Shown in pieces: positions 30,158 to 60,214 of a DNA stretch of 60,792 nt. Position 1 is the stretch's first letter. Each line of letters begins with the position of its first letter. The position numbers and the translations under genes were made by a program. Origin of the DNA: Candidatus Aminicenantes bacterium (GTDB lineage: Bacteria > Acidobacteriota > Aminicenantia > Aminicenantales > Saccharicenantaceae); the NCBI GenBank assembly GCA_002877915.1, contig PNJE01000075.1, positions 1 through 60,792 of the forward strand, in the 5' to 3' direction. The notes under the pieces are model-generated. The model did no database searches. It was not told the origin of the DNA and saw only the letters and a list, made by a program, of their open reading frames with translations.

Positions 30158-32881
30158 TCAATAAATTTCATAAAATTTATACCGTCGGTTGAGGCGCTTG
30201 ATCAGCTCCATCGCCCAGAGAGGCAGAGAAGAAAGGCAAAAAACCAGCAGCCAATCAAAGGCCGTCAGGTTCTCGGTTTTAAATATTTTCTGTAAAAAGG
30301 GAATATAAACCACCGAAAGCTGAAGAACCAAAGAAATTCCAAGCGCGTACATCAGCTTAAGATTAGTAAAAAATCCCAGTTCCCAGATCGATTTCATCTG
30401 GCTGCGAGAATTTAAAGCGTGGAAAAGCTCGGAGACAGAAAGCACTACAAAGGCAGCCGTCCGAGCCCGGGTAAGACTTTCCTTCTCCATAAAAAGGACA
30501 TAACCAAAAGCGAAAAGCGCACAAAAAGCAATAAACAATCCCTGGACGGTCATCAACCCAGCCCTTTTCCGGTCAATAATGGGTTCATCTGGTTTCCGGG
30601 GCAAGCGCCGCATTATGTCTGGGTCTGGAGGGTCAAATCCCAGACCTAAGGCTGGTAAACCATCGGTCACCAGGTTGACCCAAAGGATTTGAATAGGCAA
30701 CAAAGGCACTGGCCAGCCAACCAGAGAAGAAGCAAACATGACGACGATTTCGCCCAGATTACAGGAAAGAAGATAATGGACGAATTTTTTTATATTGTCA
30801 TAGATAGCCCGTCCTTCTTCGACCGCCGCCACAATGGAAGCAAAATTATCATCAGTAATGATCATATCGGAAACTTCTTTGGTCACATCGGTTCCGGTCA
30901 GCCCCATAGCTACCCCGATATCAGCTTCTTTCACCGCTGGAGCATCGTTAACCCCATCACCGGTCATAGCCACCACTTCTCCCTTTTGCTTCCAGGCCCG
31001 GACGATTCTCAATTTATGTTCGGGAGAAACCCGGGCATAAACCTGAACTTTTTCCACCTGCTTTTCAAACTCTTCCTGGCTCAGCCTATCCAACTCGTCT
31101 CCGCTTAGGGCCAGCGAATCTTCATTAATCATTCCCAGTTCCCGGGCAATAGCCAGAGCGGTTATCTTATGGTCTCCGGTAATCATAACTGGCTTTATCC
31201 CGGCCCGGCGGCAAGCAGCCATAGCTTCAATCACCTCAACCCGGGCTGGATCGATCATCGCCACCAGACCAACAAAGACCAGATCCCTTTCGATGCTCCC
31301 GGCTTCCAGTTTTTCGGGCAGAGCAGACATTTTCCTGTAGGCACATCCTATTACCCTGAGAGCCTGCTGAGCTAAGGATTCATTGATTTTGAGAATTCTT
31401 TCCAGGTCTTCCGTTTTTATCGGTCTTTCCTGCCCAGCTTCATATATATATGAACAATTTTTCATAAGTACTTCGGGAGCTCCCTTGACATAAGCTACAA
31501 ATTCTCCATTGCTTTTCCGGATCATGGTCATCATCTTGCGCTCGGAATCAAAGGGTATTTCTTCCACCAGAGGCTCTATCTGTTCCAACTCTTTTTTTCC
31601 TATCCCCGCTTTCAAGCCCAAAATCAAAAGGGCTCCTTCGGTCGGGTCTCCAGCAATCCGATAACCGGTATTATCCTTCACCAGGTTGGAAGAATTGCAC
31701 AAATTACCGCAGATTAAAGTCTGCCTTAGGCCAGGAAATTCTTCTGGCCTGATGATCTTATCTCCCAGCCGGAAATTACCTGTTGCTTGGTAACCCACCC
31801 CGTCAATAGAAAAAAGTTGGCCATCAGCATACACCGCCTTGACGGTCATTTCATTTTTAGTCAGTGTTCCAGTTTTATCCGAGCAGATAACCGTAGCCGC
31901 TCCTAAAGTTTCGACCGATGGCAGCTGGCGAATTAAGGCATGCCGCCTGACCATTCTTTGGACTCCGAGCGCCAGGACAATGGTTACTACAGCCGGTAAA
32001 CCTTCGGGAATTGCTGCCACCGCTAAACTGACCGCCGTCAGGAAAACCTGAACAAAATTTCCTCCCCTCACCCATTCGAGCAAGAAAACCAGCCCGACCA
32101 AGATAAAGCAAAGATAGACGATCCAGCGGCCAAATTGCTCAAGTTTTCTCTGAAGAGGTGTCGTCTCAATAGTGATATCCTGAATCAATCGGGCTATTTG
32201 CCCGAGCTCGGTAGCCATCCCGGTATGGATCACGACTGCCCTGGCCTTGCCTGAAGAAACCGAGGTTCCGGCATAAACCATATTGGCTCGATCAGCTAAG
32301 GGCAGGTCCTCTTCCTCCAGCACCAGACTCGTTTTTACAACCGGAACTGATTCGCCAGTAAGAGCAGATTCCTGAACTGAAAAATTCTGGGTATGGTAAA
32401 CAATCCTAGCATCGGCTGGAACATTATCTCCAGCTTCCAGCTCCAGCAGATCTCCTGGGACCACTTCCTTGGCTTCAACCTGAGTTATTTCTCCGTTTCT
32501 AATAACCCTCGTCCGGGGGGCAGCCATTTTTTTTAAGGCTGCCAGGGCCTTCTCAGCCCGGTATTCCTGAAAGAATCCTAAGATGGCATTAAGAATTACG
32601 ATCCCGATAATAGCCAGAGAATCAATCCATTCTCCCAGGAAACCAGATACCACCGCAGCTACTAACAGGACCCAGATCAGAAAAGATTTAAACTGATCTA
32701 AAAAGACAACCAGCGGCGACCGACCGGGTATCTCTTGCAGTTGATTATAACCGTAAGTACGAAGATTTTTTTCGACTTGATCTGGAGAAAGCCCTTTATT
32801 TAAGTCAGTATTGAACAGGTCAGCCACTTCTTCTGGAGTCAGCTTCCAGAATTTTTTAGTTGGTTCTTTTTCCACATTCAT
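30158..32881 (-). CDS. Cation-translocating P-type ATPase, type IIA (Ca2+-type)
   Basis: [29 protein letters not shown] and WVNLVTDG. Confidence 0.93.
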
Positions 32882-49205: not shown

Positions 49206-52200
49206 TCATTTGACTATCTTCCCCGGTCGGCCCCTTTCCCTGGTCAGCGGGAAGAAAGGACCCTGGGTGCCGGAAGTAGCGATCACCCGATTATAACAAT
49301 CAAGAGCCTCAACCCGGTAGGTATAGGTTTGGCCCTTGTCTAAATATTTATCAATGTAAACCAAGCGACCATAACTGAAATCAGCCTCAGTAAATTCTTT
49401 CCTCAATTCATCAGTTCCACCATTGGCTTTTCGCCACAACCTATACTTAGCAACGGTAAAGGGAGCTTCCTTATTTACGACAATAGTCAGCCGACCATAA
49501 TCCCGGCTAATAATCCAGGCTTTCTCCGTGCGGCGCTCTACTTCCAGGGAAATAGTAATTACCGGAATAAAACCGGTCCCTGAAACATTGAAAGAAGCCG
49601 TGGGATTATCAGCATCGTTACTGAGAAGGTTAAAAGTAGCTTCGACTGCTCCGACGTTAGAAGGGGCAAATCTGATGGTTATAATTTTTGAGCTAAAAGC
49701 CGGCACGGTAAAAGGAAACGCTGGCCCAATGTAGATAAAATCACTGGAACCTGAAGCCCGGGAAATTGAACTGACGGTTAAATCGCCTCCGCCATCATTA
49801 TATACAATCGTTGCGCCATCAGCCTGGCTGCAGACATTGACATTTCCAAAAGAAATGCCGGCTATTGGCACCCGCAACTTGGGCTTATTTTCGGGAGTGG
49901 TAACTGAAGCTTCGTTAGAATAATCAGAATCACCAGCTTGATTATAAGCTCTAACCCGATAATAATAGTTCGTCAACTCAGTAACACTCCCATCAAGATA
50001 GCGAGTGACATTAGCCCCAACAGTAGCTGCCTGGTTCCAGGTTCCGCCTGCTCCGGTTTTCCTCTCAATCTTAAATCCATCTTCGTTATAGGAATTATCA
50101 GTCCAGCTCAGGCTTACCTGGCTGGCGGAAACAGCTTGGGCCTGAAGATTACTCGGGGCCAAAGGAATCGTCAGAGCAGGAGTGGTTACAGTAACTTCAT
50201 TGGAAGAAGCCGAATCACCGCTGCCGCTAAAAGCAAACACTCGGTAGCTGTAGGTCGTGGTTTCAATCACGCTGGTATCAGAGTAAGAAGTTACATTAGC
50301 GGCCAGGGTCGTCAGAGTAGTCCAGTTCCCACTTCCAATTTTTCTTTCTATCCGGAAGCCGGTTTCTCCACTGGAATTGTCATTCCAGGTCAAATCAATC
50401 TGGCGTTCATTTATGACCTTAGCCACCAAATTGCTGGGGGCAGCTGGCCTGGTCAAGACACTCAATTCATTAGAATAAAGGGAATCACCGATATCGTTAT
50501 AAGCTCTTACCCGGTAATAATAAGTAGTGGCTTCGGTCAGACCCGTATTTTTATAGGCGGTAATATTGGCCCCAACCAAGGCTATCTGATTCCAGCTTCC
50601 TGGCACTCCGGTTTTTCTTTCAATTTTAAAACCATCCTCGTTATTTGATTTATCATCCCAGGCCAGATTGGCTTCAGTATCAGTAACATTTACCAGACGT
50701 AAATTTTGTGGAGCCAGCGGGGGAAGCTTTCCATAGATTCTGGTAATAAAGGCATCCTCAATCAGATAACCAATTCCACCGCCAGGATTTAGAAAAGGAC
50801 CATTTAAAGTTGGAAAATCAGCCGAACGGGTAAAACCAGCCACATAAATATTGCCAGCGCCGTCAGCAGCCACTCCGTTGGCTTCCTCCAAATCGGAGCC
50901 ACCCAGAAAACTTGAATAATAATACCCCTGCCCATCGGCCCGCAGGACACAGACAAAGGCATCGCGATTCCCATGATAAGTCAGAAAAGGGCCGCCAGTT
51001 ACCGGAAAATTAGCCGACTCGGTTGCCCCCACCAGATAAACGAGACCGGCAGCATCAACCGCTATCGAAGTCCCAAAATCATCCGCCGAACCACCAACAT
51101 AGCCGCAGAAAAGCAGGGCCGTACTGGTTGGATTGATTTTAGCTACAAAGGCATCGGAGCCACCATTATAACTGACATCCGGTCCAACAGTAGCCGGGAA
51201 ATTAGTCGCCGAAAGAGTAGCCCCAGTTATATAGGCATTTCCTGAGCTATCAACTGCAATACTTGAACCATAATCGTCCGAACTCCCACCTATATAACCG
51301 CAATACAACAAAGAAGCCCCAGAAGTATCAACCTTAGCCACAAAAGCATCCAACCCACCAGATTGAGTCAGCTTGGGGCCATTCTTAACTGGAAATTGGT
51401 TGGCCGGTGTAGAGGCAGTATACCCGGTTACATAAGCATTCCCAGCCGAATCCACGGCGATAGAACTTCCAATATCATCCCTCGTTCCACCGATAAATCC
51501 GCTCCAATCCACTTGGGAACCAGAAGCAGCTATTCTTAAGACAAAGGCATCTTTAAGACCGCCAGATCGAAGAAAAGGACCCGTTTTGGTAGGGAAATCA
51601 GAAGATTCGGTCGTGCCACAGACATAGGCTCGACCAGAGCTATCAACCGCCACCCCGTTAGCCTGATCTGCTAAGCTCCCGCCCAGATACCCACTGTATA
51701 TCAAGGCGGTGCCATCAGCATTAATTTTGGTGATGAAGCCATTGCCATATTGAGTGATATTTCCATTAGCGTTAGTGAATGGTCCAACCACCACTGGAAA
51801 GTCCGGCGATTTGGTAAACCCACAGACATAAGCATTACCCGAACTATCAACGGAAATACTATTGCCAGAATCATCAAAACTTCCGCCAAGATACCCGCAA
51901 TAAATAAGACCTGTGCCTGAAGGATTAATCTTGGCCACAAAAGCATCTGTTCCCAAAGCTGGACCATTAAAAGTTGGGTCAGGACCAACAGATACTGGAA
52001 AGTCATAAGAAGCCGTCCAGCCAGTGAGATAAGCATTCCCAGCACTATCAATAGCCACCGCCAGCCCTCGGTCATTGGATGAACCGCCGAGATAGCCGCT
52101 ATAAATCAAAATGGCCGGATCAAGGTATAACGGCCGCTCTGGATCATAAGCTCCGAACTTAAAAGTATAAGTGACCGAAAGCCAGCCCGACGGCTCCCTT

Positions 52201-53075
52201 TTTTGCTCCAGTATTTTATAGCTCACCGGAATATAAATTTTTTGCCCATTTTTAATCTGATAGGCAAACGGCCGGTCATCCACGAAATTGCCAGCAGGAG
52301 TTTGAATTTCAAGCTGCCCCTCTGCATTTAAATAAATTCCTGAAATTCCTTCATATTTTAAACGAAGGCAGGAAAGATCGGCTCCTGGTTCAATAAAAAA
52401 TTCAGATTTAAGAGAATTTTGATCTCCGGCTAAATTCAGGTTAATTCCAGGCCACAGGCGAGGATAAGAAATTTTGGAATAAGTAGGAATTCCGACCAAC
52501 CAGTGATCTGGAGAACCACGGAAATAGGAAATCTTCGCTTGGGCTTTCTCCAGCCCAATGGGCGTGACCTCAGGATTAGCTCCCACAAGGGACAGCTTGA
52601 CCACCCAGCGATTCCAGTCATCGGCCGATTGATAATTATAAATATTTTTCCAACCGGCTCTATTTATATTTGCTTTTTCTTTACTCTTTATAAGCTTAAC
52701 TGCAGGGGCTTCAGCCATTGTCAATCTGGTAGCCCAAAGGGTATTATTGGATTCTATAGACTCGGTTTTTCTAATGTGATTCAGGGCAATAATCAGTCCT
52801 TCTCTATTGAAATAAATATTCTTATCGCGCCCCTGAAGATAAAAGTCCACTGGTCCATTTAGCTGGCCAAGATTCGGAATAAAATAAAGCGGCCAGGTTA
52901 TTACATTTTTCTGGAGAAACTCTATCGACTGGATTTTTCCCAATTCAAATTGGTTTAAACCTGGCCCCGAAAAATTGCCTTGAAGCGGCAAGAGTGGAAG
53001 GAAGCCACCAACTGAGATTAGGGTTCCCAAAAATAAGATAAAAATGAAAAAGCTTCGGCCAGGCTTAGATTTCAT
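49206..53075 (-). CDS. Large surface/secreted protein: SBBP beta-propeller, 3x FN3, ASH/Ig-like domain
   Basis: Seven GYxGGxxxD..IAVDxxGNAYxxGxT repeats, three PxAPxNL..WxDNSxNExGFxIERK repeats and an ISFGNV Ig-like domain; signal peptide. Confidence 0.85.
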   Translation of the reverse strand: MKSKPGRSFFIFILFLGTLISVGGFLPLLPLQGNFSGPGLNQFELGKIQSIEFLQKNVITWPLYFIPNLGQLNGPVDFYLQGRDKNIYFNREGLIIALNHIRKTESIESNNTLWATRLTMAEAPAVKLIKSKEKANINRAGWKNIYNYQSADDWNRWVVKLSLVGANPEVTPIGLEKAQAKISYFRGSPDHWLVGIPTYSKISYPRLWPGINLNLAGDQNSLKSEFFIEPGADLSCLRLKYEGISGIYLNAEGQLEIQTPAGNFVDDRPFAYQIKNGQKIYIPVSYKILEQKREPSGWLSVTYTFKFGAYDPERPLYLDPAILIYSGYLGGSSNDRGLAVAIDSAGNAYLTGWTASYDFPVSVGPDPTFNGPALGTDAFVAKINPSGTGLIYCGYLGGSFDDSGNSISVDSSGNAYVCGFTKSPDFPVVVGPFTNANGNITQYGNGFITKINADGTALIYSGYLGGSLADQANGVAVDSSGRAYVCGTTESSDFPTKTGPFLRSGGLKDAFVLRIAASGSQVDWSGFIGGTRDDIGSSIAVDSAGNAYVTGYTASTPANQFPVKNGPKLTQSGGLDAFVAKVDTSGASLLYCGYIGGSSDDYGSSIAVDSSGNAYITGATLSATNFPATVGPDVSYNGGSDAFVAKINPTSTALLFCGYVGGSADDFGTSIAVDAAGLVYLVGATESANFPVTGGPFLTYHGNRDAFVCVLRADGQGYYYSSFLGGSDLEEANGVAADGAGNIYVAGFTRSADFPTLNGPFLNPGGGIGYLIEDAFITRIYGKLPPLAPQNLRLVNVTDTEANLAWDDKSNNEDGFKIERKTGVPGSWNQIALVGANITAYKNTGLTEATTYYYRVRAYNDIGDSLYSNELSVLTRPAAPSNLVAKVINERQIDLTWNDNSSGETGFRIERKIGSGNWTTLTTLAANVTSYSDTSVIETTTYSYRVFAFSGSGDSASSNEVTVTTPALTIPLAPSNLQAQAVSASQVSLSWTDNSYNEDGFKIERKTGAGGTWNQAATVGANVTRYLDGSVTELTNYYYRVRAYNQAGDSDYSNEASVTTPENKPKLRVPIAGISFGNVNVCSQADGATIVYNDGGGDLTVSSISRASGSSDFIYIGPAFPFTVPAFSSKIITIRFAPSNVGAVEATFNLLSNDADNPTASFNVSGTGFIPVITISLEVERRTEKAWIISRDYGRLTIVVNKEAPFTVAKYRLWRKANGGTDELRKEFTEADFSYGRLVYIDKYLDKGQTYTYRVEALDCYNRVIATSGTQGPFFPLTRERGRPGKIVK

Positions 53076-53216: not shown

Positions 53217-53250
53217 TTGACAGAATTAAGTTATAAATATAACTTAATTC
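53217..53250 (+). promoter_or_regulatory. mgtA promoter overlapped by a perfect 13-bp inverted repeat (putative operator)
   Basis: TTGACA at 53217-53222 and TAACTT at 17-bp spacing; GAATTAAGTTATA-AA-TATAACTTAATTC at 53223-53250. Confidence 0.7.
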
Positions 53251-53306
53251 AGAAAAGCATTACTGTTGATCGCAACTGGAGTTTTTCTCCGGGAGGCAGT
53301 AAAAAA

Positions 53307-53402
53307 ATGAGTGATTCGGATGGAAGTTATAGTAGCCAGACTCATCCGGGTTCAGGATTAGAACCTGCCGGCTGGGGGCCGAGCTGTCCCAGCTGTTTTT
53401 GA
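53307..53402 (+). CDS. Putative leader peptide (uORF) of mgtA
   Basis: GGGAGG RBS at 53291-53296; 31 aa MSDSDGSYSSQTHPGSGLEPAGWGPSCPSCF with 4 Pro, located in the ~200-nt leader. Confidence 0.4.
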   Translation: MSDSDGSYSSQTHPGSGLEPAGWGPSCPSCF

Positions 53403-53411
53403 TTTTGGGGG

Positions 53412-53465
53412 CAGTCACCTCCAGCCAGAAAGATATTGGAAGCCTGGCTTGTGCGGAGGTGGCTG
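53412..53465 (+). promoter_or_regulatory. Shine-Dalgarno-sequestering hairpin of mgtA
   Basis: CAGTCACCTCC (53412-53422) pairs with GGAGGTGGCTG (53455-53465; 10 WC + 1 GU); inner AGCCAG/CTGGCT stem. Confidence 0.6.
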
Positions 53466-56144
53466 TTGGAGACCAATAAAATTCAGAAGAAGTTAAGATT
53501 TCCAGGGCGGGAAGCCAAGAACCAGAATACCCTTAGAACTGATCTCCTTAAATTTAGTGAGCCCGAGCAACGTCTGATAGAGCTTTGCACCATTCCGCTG
53601 GAACAGGCTTTCTCCCAGCTGGAAACTTCAGCCAAAGGGTTGACTCCAGAGGAAGTCGAACACCGCCTGGATGAATATGGCCCCAATGAGCTTTCCCAGA
53701 AAAAACACTTAAGTTTCTGGGCTGATATGCTCCGCCGGCTGAAGAGCCCGCTGGTCATTCAGCTTTTAGCCATCGCCTTTATTTCAGCCCTGATTGGCGA
53801 AATAAAATCAAGCCTTATTGTCTCGGCGATGGTTATTTTAAGTGTCGGGCTTTCCTATGTTCTTGATAGGCGCTCTTACTTGGCAGTCGAATCCCTGGGA
53901 AAAAGAGTCCAGTCTCGAACGTTAGTGATAAGAGGTGGCCTTGAGACAGAAGTAAAAATTTCAGAAGTAGTCCCGGGCGATATAGTTGTTCTTCATGCTG
54001 GCTCGATAGTTCCAGCTGACCTTCGCTTAATTTCGGCCAAAGATTTCTTTGTTAGCGAATCATCTTTAACCGGTGAATCAATGCCGGTGGAAAAAACCGC
54101 TTCTGGCCCGACAGCTCCTACACCATCAGCTATAGAATTGCCCAACGCCTGCTTTCTGGGAACCTTTGTTACCAGTGGTACTGCCCGCGGGCTGGTCATT
54201 AATACCGGTCAAAAAACTCTATTCGGCGCTATTTCAGAAAGGCTGACCGAAGAGCCGCCCGAAACCAGCTTCGATCGAGGAGTGCGCAAATTTACCTGGT
54301 TGATGATTCGCTTTATGGTGATAATGGTTCTGGCTGTCTTCATGATCGTTGGCTTGACTAAGGGCAACTGGTTGGAAGCTCTGCTTTTTGGCATCTCGAT
54401 TGCTGTTGGCTTAACGCCAGAAATGCTTCCCATGATTATTACCGTTAATCTGGCTAAGGGAGCCCTTTCGATGGCTAAGAAAAAGGTCATTGTTAAAAGG
54501 CTTCCAGCTATTCAGAATTTTGGGGCAATTAATGTTTTATGCACAGATAAAACCGGGACCTTGACCCAGGATCGAGTGGTATTAGAAAAGCATGTTGATA
54601 TTCTCGGGAATCCCAGCGAGGATGTGCTGAATTACGCTTATCTTAATAGCTACTTCCAGACAGGGCTTAGAAACCTTATCGACCGAGCTATTCTGGAGTA
54701 TGAGGAGCTGGAGGTAGAACAGAATTGCCGGCTGGTGGATGAACTACCTTTCGATTTTCAGCGGCGGCGAATGTCGGTAGTAGTAGACTATGAAGGAAAC
54801 CACGTGCTTATCTGCAAGGGGGCGGTGGAAGAAATTTATTCTTGCTGCACCAGCTATCAGATCGGTGATGAAGTTTATCCACTTATAGATATGATTCGAG
54901 CTGATCTTTTTGAGGAAGTGGAACAGCTCAATCGGAATGGTTTCCGGGTGCTGGGCATCGCCTACCGGGAATTTCCGCGGACGAAAACTGTTTTCAGTGT
55001 TCAGGACGAAAGCCAGCTTATCCTTCTTGGCTACATTGCTTTCTTTGATCCGCCAAAAAGCTCCGCCTCAGAAGCGGTCAAGCTGCTTAAAAAGGCCGGA
55101 GTAAAAGTAAAAGTCTTGACCGGTGATAATGGCCTGGTAACCGAAAAAATTTGCCATGAGGTTGGAATTGAAATAGATGGAATGATCAGCGGCTCAGATC
55201 TGGCTAAGCTAACAGGGGATAATTTTCTAAAAGCAGTCGAAAGCAATAATGTCTTTGTCAAGCTGAGTCCAGCTCAAAAGGAGGAAATTGTCGAGGCGAT
55301 GCGCCAGAATGGCCACGTGGTTGGCTTCCTGGGCGATGGCATTAATGATGCTCCCGCTCTTAAGGCGGCTGATGTCGGCATTTCGGTTGACTCAGCGGTA
55401 GATGTGGCTAAGGAGTCGGCCGATATAATCCTTTTAGTAAAAAGTCTGTTAGTTCTGGAAGAAGGGATTATCGAGGGGCGCCGGGTTTTTGCTAACATTA
55501 TTAAATATATTCAGATGGCCGCCAGCTCCAATTTTGGCAATATGTTCAGCGTCGTTGGGGCCAGCTACCTGCTTCCTTTTCTGCCGATGAGACCGATTCA
55601 AATTTTAACCAATAATCTTCTTTATGATTTTTCCCAGACTGGAATTCCAACCGACCGGGTGGATGAAGAACTCATCGCCAAACCCAGGCGATGGGACATC
55701 ACCAGTATCAAGAATTTTATGGTGCTTATCGGCCCGGTAAGCTCAATCTTTGATTATGCCACTTTTGGCTTGATGTGGTTCTTTTTTCACTGTCGGGCTT
55801 ATGTCAACCCGGCAATTGCCGCCAGCCAGAAAGAATTCTTGGTCAGGCTTTTCCAGACTGGCTGGTTTGTTGAATCACTGTTAACCCAGACGATGATTGT
55901 CCATATAATCAGAACAAAAAGAATACCGTTTATCCAGAGCCGGCCCTCTTCTCACCTGCTGATGACTACCCTGATTATTATGAGCATTGGAGCCTGGTTA
56001 CCCTACTCCCCCTTTGCCAGTTCGCTTGGAATGGTGCCCTTGCCGGCGATTTACTGGGTCTGGATTGCCGGTTTTCTTTTGAGCTATTCTATTCTGGCCC
56101 ACCTGGTTAAAACCTGGTTTTATAAACATTTTGGAGGTGACTGA
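53466..56144 (+). CDS. mgtA: Magnesium-translocating P-type ATPase (type IIIB)
   Basis: TGES, TPEMLP, DKTGTLT, GDGINDAP, SSNFGN, NNLLYD and QTGWFVES; TTG 53466 after GGAGGT. Confidence 0.93.
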   Translation: METNKIQKKLRFPGREAKNQNTLRTDLLKFSEPEQRLIELCTIPLEQAFSQLETSAKGLTPEEVEHRLDEYGPNELSQKKHLSFWADMLRRLKSPLVIQLLAIAFISALIGEIKSSLIVSAMVILSVGLSYVLDRRSYLAVESLGKRVQSRTLVIRGGLETEVKISEVVPGDIVVLHAGSIVPADLRLISAKDFFVSESSLTGESMPVEKTASGPTAPTPSAIELPNACFLGTFVTSGTARGLVINTGQKTLFGAISERLTEEPPETSFDRGVRKFTWLMIRFMVIMVLAVFMIVGLTKGNWLEALLFGISIAVGLTPEMLPMIITVNLAKGALSMAKKKVIVKRLPAIQNFGAINVLCTDKTGTLTQDRVVLEKHVDILGNPSEDVLNYAYLNSYFQTGLRNLIDRAILEYEELEVEQNCRLVDELPFDFQRRRMSVVVDYEGNHVLICKGAVEEIYSCCTSYQIGDEVYPLIDMIRADLFEEVEQLNRNGFRVLGIAYREFPRTKTVFSVQDESQLILLGYIAFFDPPKSSASEAVKLLKKAGVKVKVLTGDNGLVTEKICHEVGIEIDGMISGSDLAKLTGDNFLKAVESNNVFVKLSPAQKEEIVEAMRQNGHVVGFLGDGINDAPALKAADVGISVDSAVDVAKESADIILLVKSLLVLEEGIIEGRRVFANIIKYIQMAASSNFGNMFSVVGASYLLPFLPMRPIQILTNNLLYDFSQTGIPTDRVDEELIAKPRRWDITSIKNFMVLIGPVSSIFDYATFGLMWFFFHCRAYVNPAIAASQKEFLVRLFQTGWFVESLLTQTMIVHIIRTKRIPFIQSRPSSHLLMTTLIIMSIGAWLPYSPFASSLGMVPLPAIYWVWIAGFLLSYSILAHLVKTWFYKHFGGD

Positions 56145-56941
56145 TGGATACTTTGCTCGATGCTTTGCAGGAAGGACGCCTTTTCGAACTGCCGGAAAAT
56201 GATAAAACCCACGCCCTCCAATTCCTGGCCCACGTAATTGAAGCTTTTCCAGAGACTCCAGCCGGGACTGATGTGGTCGGATTGGTCCTGAAAAGAGAAG
56301 AAGCCGCCAATACCGGCCTGGGCAAAGGCTGGGCCTGCCCCCATGCCCGGGTTCCTTATGAAGAAGACTTAATGTGTGTCATTGGCTGGAGCCCGGTCGG
56401 AATTGATTACGGAGCTCCCGATAATCAGCCTGTTTCTATCATCGTAATGCATGTTGTTCCTGATAACCAGCGGAGCCATTACCTTAGAGAAATATCAATT
56501 TTAGCCAAAGCTCTTAGCCTCTATAAGGACGTAGAAAAAATTCACCAGGCGAAGAATCTTGACGATGTCCGTCTTTATCTTTTGGAAATGATTGAAACCA
56601 CCAAGATGGCCGCTGGCCCGGATGCCCGAGCCAGAATGATTAGTCTCCAGACAAAAGCAGCCGCTCCTACGTTTCCCCTGCCCGAACTGACCAATCTGCT
56701 GGTTGAGCCAATTACTGTGGTGGCTGGGCCGGGCTTAAAACCGGTAGTTCTTTCTCAGAATCCGGCGTTGGCTGACCAGTTAGAATCCTTGCCTGACTTG
56801 GTAGAAAAGCTGGAAGCCGAGGGCGTATATCAAAACGGTGGCTGGCGGATAATGCGCCGCAGCGTTACTTCCTACCAGCGGGGACGGGTAGTTTATGACT
56901 GCCTGGCTATTAAGATTATCGCTGGCAGTTCTATAAAATAG
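56144..56941 (+). CDS. PTS EIIA (Fru/Ntr-type)-domain protein with C-terminal extension
   Basis: REE..NTGLGKGWACPHAR (phospho-His motif), GIDYGAPDNQPV and HYLR..S.LA; TGATG-coupled to mgtA. Confidence 0.85.
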   Translation: MDTLLDALQEGRLFELPENDKTHALQFLAHVIEAFPETPAGTDVVGLVLKREEAANTGLGKGWACPHARVPYEEDLMCVIGWSPVGIDYGAPDNQPVSIIVMHVVPDNQRSHYLREISILAKALSLYKDVEKIHQAKNLDDVRLYLLEMIETTKMAAGPDARARMISLQTKAAAPTFPLPELTNLLVEPITVVAGPGLKPVVLSQNPALADQLESLPDLVEKLEAEGVYQNGGWRIMRRSVTSYQRGRVVYDCLAIKIIAGSSIK

Positions 56942-57868: not shown

Positions 57869-60214
57869 TTAAAAGTTGAAAGCTTTCCCGCCTTTCCATT
57901 TATAAAGAAGAATCTTGATTAGATCGGTAAAAAAGAGGGTTACCACCAAAGCATAAGCCAGAACCAGGAAAACATAAGAAAGGGGGACCCTAACGACGAA
58001 TATTCCCCCAGCCACCACAACGGTAGCTATAATCAAGTCCGCTACGATAAAAATCATCAACGGCCAGCTCGGAAGTGAATGGAAAAACATTTTTCTTTCC
58101 CTGAAATTCAGGATATTAAGTATTCCTGAAACCAGCAAAAGATAAAACATTAGCGATTGAACCTGTTCAAATCTGAGAGGCCAGAATTTTATTATTAAGT
58201 ACATCGCCAGGAAAAGTTCCAGGATTTTCAGGCAACCGAAAATTAAGGCCACGGTAATTAATTTTTCCAGACTCCACTTTTCTGGCCGCTCACCTCCTTC
58301 CAGATTATCGGTGGCTATGGAAATAGTGACGAAATCAAACAGGAAAAGCATTAAAATCATGGCTACTGGGGTGATAACCGGCTTCCCAAGAATCAAGGTA
58401 GCGGCAGAGACAAAAAAGACAATCTGAAAGGTCTTGACCACTTTATTGATAATCCAGAGAATTATCCTCCGGTATATCTTTCGTCCGGTTTGTATCAGGT
58501 CGACAATGTTAGAAAGCCCGGGGCTGGTGAGAATTACCTTGGCTGCTTCTTTGGCTATGTCCAAGGAGTTACTAACGGCAATTCCCAGGTCAGCCTTTCT
58601 CAGGGCTGGGGCATCATTAACTCCATCTCCGGTCATCCCGACAGTATGCCCTTTCGACTGATAAAAATTGACCAGGCTGAACTTATCCTCCGGAAGGACC
58701 TCGGCAAAAACTTCAAGTTCTTCTGGAACTGCTGAGGTCGGCTCCCGATCATTTTTCCAGACAGCCACCTTTTCTCCGAGCCCGACCGCGGCGGCAACCT
58801 CTTTAGCAATCAATTGATTGTCACCGGTAATCATTTTTACCGAGATTCCGAGGTTCTTGATTCGGGCGATGAAATCTTTGGAATCTTTTCGTGGGTAATC
58901 AAAAAAACTCAGAAGCCCAATTGCCTCCAAGCTCCGGTCTTCTTTTTTGATGGCCACAATTAAGGTTCTTTGGCCAGATGAAGCTAATCGCGATAATTGG
59001 CTTTCAATCTCGCTTTTCTTAGCCGAAGAAGGCAACTGGGCCAGCACCACCTGCGGAGCCCCTTTTATTACTTCTATTCTTTGCCCCTGATATTCAATTT
59101 CAGCCCCTGCCAACTTCGTTTCTGGATCAAACGGCTTGAAATTAAGAATATTGATGTTTTCAGCCCCTAACTGTTTGCCATATTCCAAGATGGCTGAATC
59201 TATGGGGTCAAGAGTTACCTGGTCAGAAGCCGCCCGGGCTAAAGCGACGACTTGCTTCTCGGTATAACCATCGGCTAAGCAAATTACCTCACTTATCTTA
59301 ATCCGGTTCTCAGTGATGGTCCCGGTTTTGTCCAGGCAAAGAATATCCATCATGGCGCTATTCTCTATTCCATCTAACTTTCTAACCAGGACTCCTTTGC
59401 GGGCGAGTTCCAGGCTGCCTAAGGAAAGCGAGAGAATTGTCATAGCCGGCAGGGCGACGGGGATGGAAGCAATAAGCAGAGTCAGAATAACTGGCAGAGC
59501 AGATTGGAAAGGCAGGCGCTCTAAATCAAACTTAATCAAAACAGCCACAATGAAAAAAGAATCTACCAGGAGCAGACCTCTGGTAACACTCATGGTAATC
59601 TTTTCAATAATCAATCGCGGCCGGGCTTTTTCAATTAATTCTGCTGTCCGGCCATAATAAGTCCGCGGACCAGTGGCCACTACCTGGCAGATGGCCTGAC
59701 CACGGGTTATCAGGCTTCCAGAATATATTTTTTCATTTTCTTTTTTTTCGGCCGGAATTGATTCTCCGGTCAAAGGAGATTCATCCACTGAAACTCCACC
59801 CTCGAGTATCAAGGCATCAGCTGGGACAATATCACCAGCCACTACTTTAATCAGGTCATCGGGGACAAGTTCCACTGAGGAGAGCTGCTGCCAGGCATTT
59901 TCCCTTAAAACTTTAACCGTAACCGTTATTCTTTTCATCAGAAGCTCTAACGCCCGAGAAGCCCTGAATTCCTGGAAAAAACCCATGGCGGCATTAAAAA
60001 GCAACAAAAAGGCCATCACTGCGGCTTCCAGATAATGCTTTATAAAAATCATTATGATAAGCGAGGCTTCGATAACCACCGCCGAGAGCCCGGTCAGCCG
60101 TTTCAAAAAATCCAAAACCAAATTGGTCTTTTGGCCGGTAATTTCATTGCGTCCAAATTGCTCCCGCCGCTTTTGAACTTCTGATTGATTTAATCCTGAG
60201 ATTTTTGGATCCAT
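57869..60214 (-). CDS. Plasma-membrane proton-efflux-type P-type ATPase (type IIIA)
   Basis: DESPLTGES, IPVALP, CLDKTGTIT, PFDP..K, KGAPQ and TGDGVNDAP; 781 aa. Confidence 0.85.
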   Translation of the reverse strand: MDPKISGLNQSEVQKRREQFGRNEITGQKTNLVLDFLKRLTGLSAVVIEASLIIMIFIKHYLEAAVMAFLLLFNAAMGFFQEFRASRALELLMKRITVTVKVLRENAWQQLSSVELVPDDLIKVVAGDIVPADALILEGGVSVDESPLTGESIPAEKKENEKIYSGSLITRGQAICQVVATGPRTYYGRTAELIEKARPRLIIEKITMSVTRGLLLVDSFFIVAVLIKFDLERLPFQSALPVILTLLIASIPVALPAMTILSLSLGSLELARKGVLVRKLDGIENSAMMDILCLDKTGTITENRIKISEVICLADGYTEKQVVALARAASDQVTLDPIDSAILEYGKQLGAENINILNFKPFDPETKLAGAEIEYQGQRIEVIKGAPQVVLAQLPSSAKKSEIESQLSRLASSGQRTLIVAIKKEDRSLEAIGLLSFFDYPRKDSKDFIARIKNLGISVKMITGDNQLIAKEVAAAVGLGEKVAVWKNDREPTSAVPEELEVFAEVLPEDKFSLVNFYQSKGHTVGMTGDGVNDAPALRKADLGIAVSNSLDIAKEAAKVILTSPGLSNIVDLIQTGRKIYRRIILWIINKVVKTFQIVFFVSAATLILGKPVITPVAMILMLFLFDFVTISIATDNLEGGERPEKWSLEKLITVALIFGCLKILELFLAMYLIIKFWPLRFEQVQSLMFYLLLVSGILNILNFRERKMFFHSLPSWPLMIFIVADLIIATVVVAGGIFVVRVPLSYVFLVLAYALVVTLFFTDLIKILLYKWKGGKAFNF

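Follow-up and report, generated by a model that had tools for sequence, protein, structure and literature searches.

The window, by which we mean the whole 60,792-nucleotide stretch of DNA analysed here, carries an mgtA gene preceded by a leader that contains a short upstream ORF (uORF) and a hairpin pairing the Shine-Dalgarno sequence (SD) ahead of mgtA. The features are listed in Table 1. The mgtA product is 77–87% identical to its orthologues, and the TTG that begins the ORF lies 6 nt 3' of GGAGG. A promoter-like site precedes the leader, and a putative transcription start near 53250–53256 is implied. The site was not among the calls of a simple promoter scan of the window; every same-genus leader has TTGAC[AT]-N17-TA[AT]nnT at the corresponding position. 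The promoter also carries a perfect 13+13 palindrome, which shows that protein-mediated control operates at the locus too. The small 5' hairpin covers the first two bases of the uORF SD, and a similar sequence is present in the closest relative. An independent hot-spring metagenome contains a 218-nt contig identical to positions 53262–53479; it came from one of four DNA runs examined, the other three yielding none.

Table 1. Features of the mgtA leader, in window coordinates
Feature	Position	Strand	Basis or remark
Promoter-like site: TTGACA (53217-22), 17-nt spacer, TAACTT (53240-45)	53217..53245	+	Sequence reading
Alternative -10, TATAAC	53238-43	+	Sequence reading
Small 5' hairpin, CUGGAG/CUCCGG	53276..53296	+	Minimum-energy fold
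uORF SD, GGGAGG	53291-53296	+	Sequence reading
uORF1, 31 codons, MSDSDGSYSSQTHPGSGLEPAGWGPSCPSCF, 4 Pro	53307..53402	+	ATG 53307, TGA 53400-53402
Element 1 (anti-anti-SD), GGCUGGGGG, uORF codons 22-24	53370..53378	+	Pairs with 53418-53426
CCCAGCU (53388-94), then U-rich tract GUUUUUGAUUUU (53395-53406) spanning the uORF stop	53388..53406	+	Terminator-like call, minimum-energy fold
Element 2 (anti-SD arm), CAGUCACCUCC + AGCCAG	53412..53428	+	Pairing, covariation, within R1 match
Element 3 (hairpin 3' arm), CUGGCU (53444-49) + GGAGGUGGCUG (53455-65), SD GGAGG inside	53444..53465	+	
mgtA, Mg2+-importing P-type ATPase, 892 aa	53466..56144	+	TTG start; TIGR01524, 1080 bits

In the SD hairpin, CAGTCACCTCC (53412-53422) pairs with GGAGGTGGCTG (53455-53465) over 11 bp with one G.U, and the pairing is extended by 6 bp between AGCCAG (53423-28) and CTGGCT (53444-49). 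The hairpin is contained in the minimum-energy fold. Among 11 same-genus leaders it is 95% paired (42–49% in slid controls), four pairs have changed on both sides, and the covariation score was matched by none of 500 shuffles; the check on related mgtA leaders that the earlier note had proposed thus returned compensatory changes. Across phyla the outer helix is 95.1% paired, with five double-change pairs. The same layout of elements recurs in each of the 10 mgtA orthologues from the genus (Ca. Saccharicenans, Aminicenantes), so both the uORF, with its own SD in each, and the stems are conserved in relatives. A covariance model of the SD hairpin (R1) was built from 27 training sequences, and it has one match in the 2.55-Mb genome of the window, at 53403–53477 (44.6 bits, E 8.7e-10), a result that is partly by construction because the window is itself a training sequence. 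Since the layout is genus-wide, the hairpin has changed in a compensatory manner and R1 matches the genome once, the uORF and hairpin elements are not a chance arrangement. The uORF, anti-SD, SD and competing segment were all found where the earlier note had placed them.

The uORF of the window encodes a peptide beginning MSDSDGSYS and stops 9 nt before the anti-SD arm. Its sequence places it, in shortened form, in an unnamed leader-peptide family that shares the N-terminus M-x-D/E-x-D-G-S-x-S. Across 29 leaders, codons 5, 6, 7 and 9 are invariant at positions 1 and 2 and variable at position 3, and across the wider family the N-terminus M-x-D/E-x-D-G-S varies only at third codon positions. 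This codon-position pattern indicates that the uORF is translated and selected at the peptide level. All but about three of 43 tabulated family loci have a uORF with its own SD. The peptide is short and hydrophilic; Pfam, NCBIfam and protein-cluster searches gave it no name, and a peptide-profile search of 5.8 billion proteins returned nine matches, all unnamed. Its C-terminal two thirds are not conserved as amino acids, whereas the overlapping RNA pairing is. The proposal that Pro codons are the key to the leader, as in MgtL, was rejected: one genus member has none, those of the others do not align, and the conserved feature of the peptide is the acidic N-terminus. An E-D-P-G-P-like mid motif occurs outside the genus and has been lost from the window.

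Within the uORF, element 1 (GGCTGGGGG, 53370-53378) pairs with CCTCCAGCC (53418-53426) over 9 bp with one G.U. Its partner overlaps the anti-SD, and the two pairings are therefore mutually exclusive, as the earlier note had recognised. The element 1:anti-SD duplex of the window has a predicted energy of −22.4 kcal/mol (z −2.8). Judged from per-sequence duplex energies, this helix lies at a family-typical, conserved distance upstream of the hairpin in 39 analysed leaders and in 10 of 10 genus members. Within the genus it is 80% paired with three double changes, which is weaker evidence because a +1 slide still gives 71%. In 24 sequences from other phyla the homologous bipartite helix reaches 86.5% pairing (27–45% in slid controls) and has six double-change pairs, with a score matched in none of 500 shuffles. 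The covariation in the genus, the position of the helix and the pairing in other phyla all bear out a uORF-linked three-segment switch able to sequester an SD, and RNAalifold detected no conserved upstream partner of element 1, i.e., no four-region design.

R1 matches 36 of 80 mgtA loci from other phyla, and the loci it matches include 15 that had no part in its training. The wider family keeps the element 1:anti-SD helix, the M-x-D/E-x-D-G-S start of the peptide, and a stop codon about 6 nt before the hairpin. The window has the traits of the R1 family: the hairpin, a uORF with its SD and N-terminus, the complementary uORF segment, and a Mg2+ importer as cargo. That cargo is always mgtA or mgtE, either mgtA directly, mgtA by way of a coupled mgtE relic, or mgtE, full-length mgtE genes being preceded by the same leader. 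When the leader DNA was compared with relatives by BLAST, the closest genome alone gave a match, and the family was detected only through mgtA-anchored loci and the covariance model. Rfam scans of the window and 35 related loci, at permissive and gathering thresholds, gave no match on the leader; elsewhere in the scanned loci they identified two tRNAs and one fluoride riboswitch. The family is unnamed in Rfam, Pfam, NCBIfam and in literature searches, and the leader device upstream of mgtA and mgtE is apparently undescribed. That the same leader stands before both genes in many bacterial phyla argues that the device is real, and it overturns the idea of an independent, lineage-specific invention.

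The sequestered SD serves an intermediate ORF (ORF2) in 10 same-genus relatives and at 23 of the 36 other loci. ORF2 is, by sequence comparison, a decayed 5' fragment of mgtE, with predicted translational coupling to mgtA; its origin is seen only by direct comparison with leader-associated MgtE, and a Pfam search of ORF2 peptides gave no match. In the window and at seven further loci the first start codon past the hairpin is that of mgtA itself. The start codon of mgtA in the window is the codon that begins ORF2 in relatives, and its first ~28 codons differ from those of mgtA in relatives. Compared with the closest relative, about 275 nt are absent from the window, homology resuming from aa 30, although the exact ends of the deletion cannot be mapped by this comparison. 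The direct junction of SD and mgtA is a derived fusion in which the mgtE-relic relay has been lost. The claim that the SD of mgtA is sequestered accordingly holds for the window and does not extend to most relatives, where the SD belongs to ORF2. The mgtA-plus-leader cassette has a patchy distribution in the genus and phylum of the window.

We consider it reasonably probable that the region works as a translational switch, controlled by a leader peptide, for a Mg2+ importer. By default, as folding and covariation show, the interrupted 17-bp hairpin hides the SD serving mgtA; in the alternative state element 1, whose pairing is evident, would hold the anti-SD arm and leave the SD free. By analogy with trp, ermC, mgtL and mgtQ, the choice would depend on how far a ribosome has progressed along the uORF during synthesis of the RNA. 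A ribosome that aborts or pauses early, at the acidic M-S-D-S-D-G-S or at Pro14, would leave element 1 naked to capture the emerging anti-SD arm, and mgtA would be translated. A ribosome that runs through would cover element 1 and then, at a stop codon lying a few nt short of the hairpin, mask the first bases of the arm, so that the SD hairpin would close. Low Mg2+ may destabilise ribosomes on short acidic nascent chains and in this way turn the pump on. The constant cargo, the single R1 match in the genome and the M-box that sister mgtA loci of the same clade carry in place of this leader connect it with Mg2+. The leader belongs to the widespread unnamed family that also precedes mgtE, and at most mgtA loci it would act through the coupled, decayed mgtE 5' ORF. 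The leader is probably a ribosome-based Mg2+ sensor, where sensing of Mg2+ or of translation speed is what we infer.

Folding of the RNA downstream of a ribosome, set on the codons one after another, gave a mixed picture of such a switch. In four family leaders (L002, L003, L005 and L009) predicted SD accessibility rises (to ~0.2–0.6) only with element 1 outside the ribosome footprint and is 0 once the ribosome covers it. In the window the SD was predicted to be closed at every ribosome position from 37 to 75 °C, and a forced ON fold is 4–4.5 kcal/mol worse than the OFF fold at equilibrium. A simple thermodynamic switch in the window was therefore rejected, since equilibrium folding never opened the SD over that range; with an ON fold ~4 kcal/mol weaker, any switching there must be kinetic, by kinetic trapping of the ON state. 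Other observations also count against the proposed switch: S-D-S-D-G-S holds just two acidic residues, the window peptide is without the E-D-P-G-P mid motif of the wider family, and a ribosome stalled at Pro20 (E19-P20) would cover element 1. A filled exit tunnel is reported to weaken ribosome destabilisation (bioRxiv 10.1101/2021.02.02.429294), which likewise counts against it.

A close functional parallel in layout is offered by mgtQ-mgtB of Salmonella (Choi et al. 2021, PMC8092293), in which mgtQ, via Asp2 and Glu5, frees the mgtB ribosome-binding site (RBS) from an inhibitory stem through an alternative helix. In both systems acidic codons, which in mgtQ destabilise the ribosome, lie close to the beginning of a short ORF, an MgtA-type pump has its RBS in an inhibitory stem, and there is a mutually exclusive anti-RBS helix; both would act at translation if our proposal for the window is correct. 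The window has the mgtQ-type parts (D3 and D5, SD hairpin, competing helix), an analogy of function and not homology: mgtQ has eight codons and lies between two genes, whereas the family ORF has 31–46 codons and lies in a 5' leader; mgtQ has a four-region design in which the ribosome on mgtQ frees region 2, whereas here there are three regions with the competitor inside the ORF; and there is no evident sequence similarity between the two, which come from different taxa.

The MgtL/mgtA leader of E. coli and Salmonella resembles the window in having a leader peptide with acidic and Pro residues before mgtA, and in that efficient translation of the leader ORF would go with low mgtA expression. 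MgtL works through Rho-dependent transcription termination; in the window the proposed read-out is sequestration of the SD. The wider family's E-D-P-G-P-R-R mid motif is reminiscent of the EPDP with which MgtL starts; the window peptide begins MSDSDG and has no EPDP-like motif. A search for the enterobacterial Mg_sensor (RF01056) that admitted E values up to 10 gave no match in the window, and 15 relatives had none at the gathering score. Translation of MgtL aborts within MEPDPT at low Mg2+ (bioRxiv 10.1101/2021.02.02.429294), and expression of corL and mgtL changes in the opposite sense to that of the gene downstream (PMC11552253). In corL-corA (PMC11552253), trpL and ermCL, where the ribosome stands on a leader ORF decides which of the exclusive folds forms, as we propose here, and in ermC, as would be the case for the window leader, the output is exposure of an SD. 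The signal of classical attenuators is amino-acid supply or an antibiotic, whereas here it would be Mg2+ and ribosome stability, and the peptide and RNA sequences of corL-corA, trpL and ermCL are unrelated to those of the window leader.

It is improbable, although the best placed of the alternatives, that the coupling is positive, with ribosomes finishing the uORF melting the hairpin or reinitiating, so that uORF translation activates mgtA and element 1 is incidental. The uORF stop lies ~6 nt (2–15 nt) before the first paired base of the hairpin in most family members, so a terminating ribosome touches the helix, and the window hairpin never opens unaided at equilibrium. Yet of the 11+6-bp hairpin a ribosome at the stop would cover only ~3 nt, and the pairing of the SD lies at the outer helix's inner end. 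Positive coupling also leaves unexplained the element 1 helix that is conserved and covaries across phyla, and if acidic codons impair uORF translation, low Mg2+ would lower synthesis of the pump.

Direct sensing of Mg2+ or another ligand by the RNA itself, with the ORF as a by-product, is unlikely. Conserved RNA helices ahead of Mg2+ transporter genes, a small conserved hairpin predicted in codons 3–8 of long leaders, and the use of the M-box by sister loci would suit such a riboswitch. The M-box, which also stands before Mg2+ transporter genes, is a metal-binding aptamer with no leader ORF, whereas the window leader has its uORF. M-box RF00380 had no match in the window or in 15 related leaders scanned, in keeping with the earlier note, and the test works, as the same search found M-boxes of 118–121 bits before two same-clade mgtA genes (L074 and L079). 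Conservation is confined to the hairpin and its competitor: neither a multi-helix junction nor an unpaired core that is conserved was found, and no Rfam family matches. The conserved ORF, SD and stop position and the codon-patterned variation would be unexpected for a non-coding aptamer.

Equally unlikely is that transcription attenuation is the main control in the window, a hairpin at 53370–53394 and its U tract terminating transcription unless a translating ribosome disrupts it. Two terminator-like sites (53375–53390 and 53382–53394) are followed by GUUUUUGAUUUU, and the 53370–53394 hairpin, in which element 1 has CCCAGCU (53388-94) as its local partner in the OFF fold, is part of the minimum-energy fold at every temperature tried. 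However, neither the closest relative nor the other family members have the hairpin and U tract, the three terminator-like sites in the region compare with 1.4 expected in shuffles, and failed uORF translation would turn the pump off. The terminator-like hairpin is thus a feature of the window only, and its logic, if it is functional, is opposite to that of the proposed leader switch. Least probable is that the uORF makes a functional small protein, or that a trans-acting protein or sRNA acts on the hairpin, with ribosome position irrelevant: the peptide-level conservation of the N-terminus and the promoter palindrome speak for it, but the C-terminal two thirds, unconserved as amino acids yet overlapping conserved RNA pairing, the short, hydrophilic and unnamed peptide, and an ORF-competitor-hairpin geometry that is that of an attenuator speak against it.

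To our knowledge, leader-peptide, ribosome-based sensing of Mg2+ has been established experimentally only for enterobacterial genes (mgtL, mgtQ and corL), and outside the enterobacteria M-box riboswitches are the accepted solution. Returning to the leader-peptide-controlled switch, we tentatively suggest that the M-x-D/E-x-D-G-S start, together with the E-D-P-G-P module in longer versions, may be a portable ribosome-based Mg2+ sensor conserved in at least eight phyla, which moved from mgtE to mgtA, an unrelated importer gene, with a stump of the old gene as translational relay. It would then be a broad non-enterobacterial counterpart, and possibly an evolutionary relative, of MgtL/MgtQ. The effect of the conserved six-residue nascent-chain motif on the ribosome is directly testable, and the mgtE relic that is coupled to mgtA clearly exemplifies a regulatory leader which a new gene has inherited via translational coupling. 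If the leader works as proposed, it would represent a third, widespread Mg2+ solution for both MgtE channels and MgtA pumps, serving Aminicenantes, Desulfobacterota, Nitrospirota, Spirochaetota, Sumerlaeota and other groups.

The SD hairpin, formed by the anti-SD and SD arms, is part of the minimum-energy structure of the window's mgtA leader throughout 37-75 °C (RNAfold). The earlier note had listed an RBS, a 31-codon uORF, an anti-SD, an SD and a competing segment inside the uORF (element 1), and all are present where it had placed them. The ORF opening at TTG 53466 encodes a magnesium-translocating P-type ATPase (TIGR01524, 1080 bits; cut-off 611). An Rfam scan of the window leader matched zero families, M-box included, even at E up to 10, and 15 related leaders likewise matched nothing, bearing out the earlier view that there is no M-box here. 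The promoter spacer and -10 are occupied by a perfect 13+13-bp palindrome, GAATTAAGTTATA-AA-TATAACTTAATTC (53223-53250), whose sequence suggests an operator bound by a dimeric repressor; a shorter dyad, CTTAAAT-ATA-ATTTAAG, occupies this site in the closest relative. The predicted mgtA-EIIA(Ntr)-like operon is conserved, and a locus of the same genus (L002) has the identical TGATG junction from mgtA to the EIIA gene.

Features of the mgtA leader and of other genes in the window
Feature	Position	Strand	Remark
Promoter-like TTGACA-N17-TAACTT	53217-53245	+	read from sequence
uORF SD GGGAGG	53291-96	+	read from sequence
uORF, 31 codons, MSDSDGSYSSQTHPGSGLEPAGWGPSCPSCF	ATG 53307 to TGA 53400-02	+	read from sequence
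Element 1 GGCTGGGGG, uORF codons 22-24	53370-78	+	complementary to CCTCCAGCC, 53418-26
Anti-SD arm CAGTCACCTCC	53412-22	+	complementary to GGAGGTGGCTG, 53455-65, one G.U
Hairpin extension helix AGCCAG:CTGGCT	53423-28 : 53444-49	+	read from sequence
mgtA start TTG	53466	+	6 nt past GGAGG; 892-aa ORF
Gene after mgtA, 265 aa, PTS_EIIA_2 (PtsN-like; PF00359, 70 bits)	56142-56941		ATG overlaps mgtA stop, GACTGATGG
Two further P-type ATPase genes	30572-32803, 58220-60208	-	28-37% identity to MgtA
1289-aa SBBP-repeat / choice-of-anchor-D protein	49206-53075	-	divergent from mgtA leader

The source genome, a MAG from a hot spring, belongs to Candidatus Saccharicenans (Aminicenantes). Full-length or near-full-length mgtA orthologues (77-87% identity) were found in 10 of 24 genomes of this genus, and an eleventh (G013) has fragments only. 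Conservation of the uORF and stems had been set beforehand as a test, and both are present in all ten, with covariation in the SD hairpin: the promoter recurs in each orthologue, and after it come a uORF of 27-36 codons, which is preceded by an SD and contains a G-rich element in its 3' portion, then the anti-SD arm, and finally the SD arm with a start codon behind it. Pairing in the anti-SD:SD helix reaches 95% in the 11-sequence genus alignment (slid controls, 42-49%), four pairs are changed on both sides, and none of 500 shuffles reached its covariation score. For the element 1:anti-SD helix the figures are 80% pairing and three double changes, a count that is weaker on its own because a +1 slide still gives 71%. 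The window and nine relatives agree in where the arm's best upstream partner lies, 21-30 nt before the arm (RNAduplex, -18.7 to -30.4 kcal/mol; L008, near-identical to L004, was omitted).

Eighty mgtA loci (69-87% protein identity) were retrieved from other genomes, and in many of them a start codon comes after the hairpin GGTTCRCCTCCGGCCGCG...CGGCCGAAACGGAGGTGAACC. A covariance model of the SD hairpin, R1, matched 36 of the 80, 15 of them outside its training set, always on the gene strand and just upstream of mgtA. The MAGs concerned are labelled Desulfobacterota or deltaproteobacteria, Syntrophorhabdia, Nitrospirota, Spirochaetia, Sumerlaeota, Thermoanaerobaculia, Latescibacterota, and Bacteroidota. 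R1 matched only once in the window's genome and, across its phylum, in only 2 of 301 sampled genomes, so the cassette is patchy and probably mobile. In a 28-sequence alignment the outer helix is 95.1% paired with five double-change pairs. An upstream bipartite segment, consensus CGCGGC...GUGAAC, which in most members ends 24-31 nt before the anti-SD arm, pairs with that arm (GUUCGC...GCCGCG); this helix is 86.5% paired (slid controls, 27-45%), has six double-change pairs and attains a score that 0 of 500 shuffles reached. At two loci whose mgtA belongs to the same clade (72-74% identity to the window's), a canonical M-box replaces the uORF leader in the same position (L074, 1163-1339; L079, 1370-1546; 118-121 bits).

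A uORF was found in all but about three of 43 tabulated loci, usually with 41-46 codons and a stop 6 nt before the arm. The family peptide reads M-[SN]-[DS]-[SP]-D-G-S-[HSY]-S ... E-x-E-D-P-G-[PS]-R .... In a set of 29 leaders, the first two positions of codons 5, 6, 7, and 9 (D, G, S, S) are invariant and the third varies, a signature of selection on the peptide. The earlier note is wrong about proline. No family for these leader peptides was found in Pfam or NCBIfam, a profile search of 5.8 billion proteins returned nine matches, every one unnamed, and no description of the leader family was found in the literature searched, a coverage that mostly excluded subscription journals.

In all ten genus relatives the start codon past the hairpin opens a separate ORF (ORF2), not mgtA. 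ORF2 is poorly conserved and has 34-95 codons, and in nine relatives its stop overlaps the mgtA ATG (TGATG) or lies up to 10 nt after it, always with a +1 junction frame. The tenth, G009 (L011, G009:C112), has an ORF2 cut to 20 codons and two in-frame TGA codons in mgtA, which points either to decay of this copy or to a faulty assembly. About 275 nt of the closest relative are absent from the window, and MgtA homology restarts at window residue 30, the relative's residue 29, which makes the direct SD-to-mgtA junction of the window a derived fusion. A contig identical to 53262-53479 in an independent metagenome argues against an assembly artefact there. Among the 36 R1-positive loci, 23 have an ORF2 (19-117 codons) ending 1-28 nt beyond the mgtA start, mostly with ATGA or TGATG overlaps; in seven the start opens mgtA directly, as in the window, which is outside the 36; and in one ORF2 stops 118 nt short of mgtA. 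ATG, GTG or TTG was not found after the hairpin in the remaining five, four of which (L040, L041, L057, L063) have ATT at the start position just after the R1 hairpin (GAGGTGAACCATTAAAAC...), and this ATT may be a non-canonical ORF2 start in a Syntrophorhabdia-like subgroup.

R1 also matches three sites directly before full-length mgtE, in G028, G336, and the Saccharicenans genome G021. The three MgtE proteins (458-459 aa) all start M[IV]NPLLAPELREL, and that of G028 has PF01769, PF03448, and CBS domains. The G028 uORF begins MSCSEEGDPF, and the G336 contig begins too near the hairpin to include the uORF start. G021 has the leader twice, before mgtA (L003, G021:C79) and before mgtE (L120, G021:C55), with different uORF peptides (MNEGDGSNS... 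and MSCCENGDPYPPG..., respectively). ORF2 of mgtA loci begins MKNKNPL...ELRE, and the L047 and L056 copies align from residue 1 with leader-associated MgtE (L047, 44% over 64 aa, E 8e-13; L056, 41% over 39 aa, E 4e-8), so ORF2 is a decayed 5' end of mgtE. A search of the window's genome found no mgtE. The earlier note misses this mgtE ancestry and the ORF2 relay, and its independently evolved device is refuted by an R1 family that spans mgtA loci of many phyla as well as mgtE.

In these leaders the SD is buried by default in a hairpin, a conserved competing segment lies within a translated ORF whose conserved stop adjoins the hairpin, and the cargo is confined to Mg2+ importers. We infer that the choice between the two helices depends on where the ribosome is on the uORF during transcription. 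If it aborted or paused early, element 1 would stay available to capture the anti-SD arm (translation ON); full uORF translation would cover element 1, a ribosome parked at the stop would mask the arm's first bases, and the hairpin would close (OFF). Computed SD accessibility in four relatives agrees with this logic, at ~0.2-0.6 as long as the ribosome footprint does not include element 1 and 0 when it does. For the window, the SD is computed to be closed at equilibrium whatever the ribosome position, and forcing the ON fold costs 4-4.5 kcal/mol, so switching there would have to be kinetic and co-transcriptional.

A terminator-like hairpin specific to the window (53370-53394), GGCUGGG...CCCAGCU, is followed by a U tract, GUUUUUGAUUUU, that holds the uORF stop (together 53370-53406); it would give the inverse logic, is not conserved, being absent from the closest relative, and is treated as incidental or an add-on. 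Positive coupling by the terminating ribosome is unlikely, since a ribosome at the stop covers only ~3 nt of the 17-bp hairpin and the covarying competitor would be left unexplained. A true riboswitch is also unlikely, as variation follows codon position and no conserved multi-helix core was found.

For the uORF-governed SD switch, which the earlier note had right in kind, the case for a link to Mg2+ comes from the cargo and from published precedent. At low Mg2+, MgtL aborts within MEPDPT (bioRxiv 10.1101/2021.02.02.429294), the Asp2 and Glu5 codons of mgtQ free the mgtB RBS via an alternative helix (PMC8092293), and downstream-gene expression is inverse to that of corL and mgtL (PMC11552253). 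As caveats to the Mg2+ reading, S-D-S-D-G-S has two acidic residues only, and the E-D-P-G-P module is lost in the window. Stalling at Pro14 would keep element 1 exposed, and stalling at Pro20 would place the ribosome over it. The closest published logic is that of mgtQ-mgtB, and relative to published leader-peptide/Mg2+ systems this family is a variant, newly described here.
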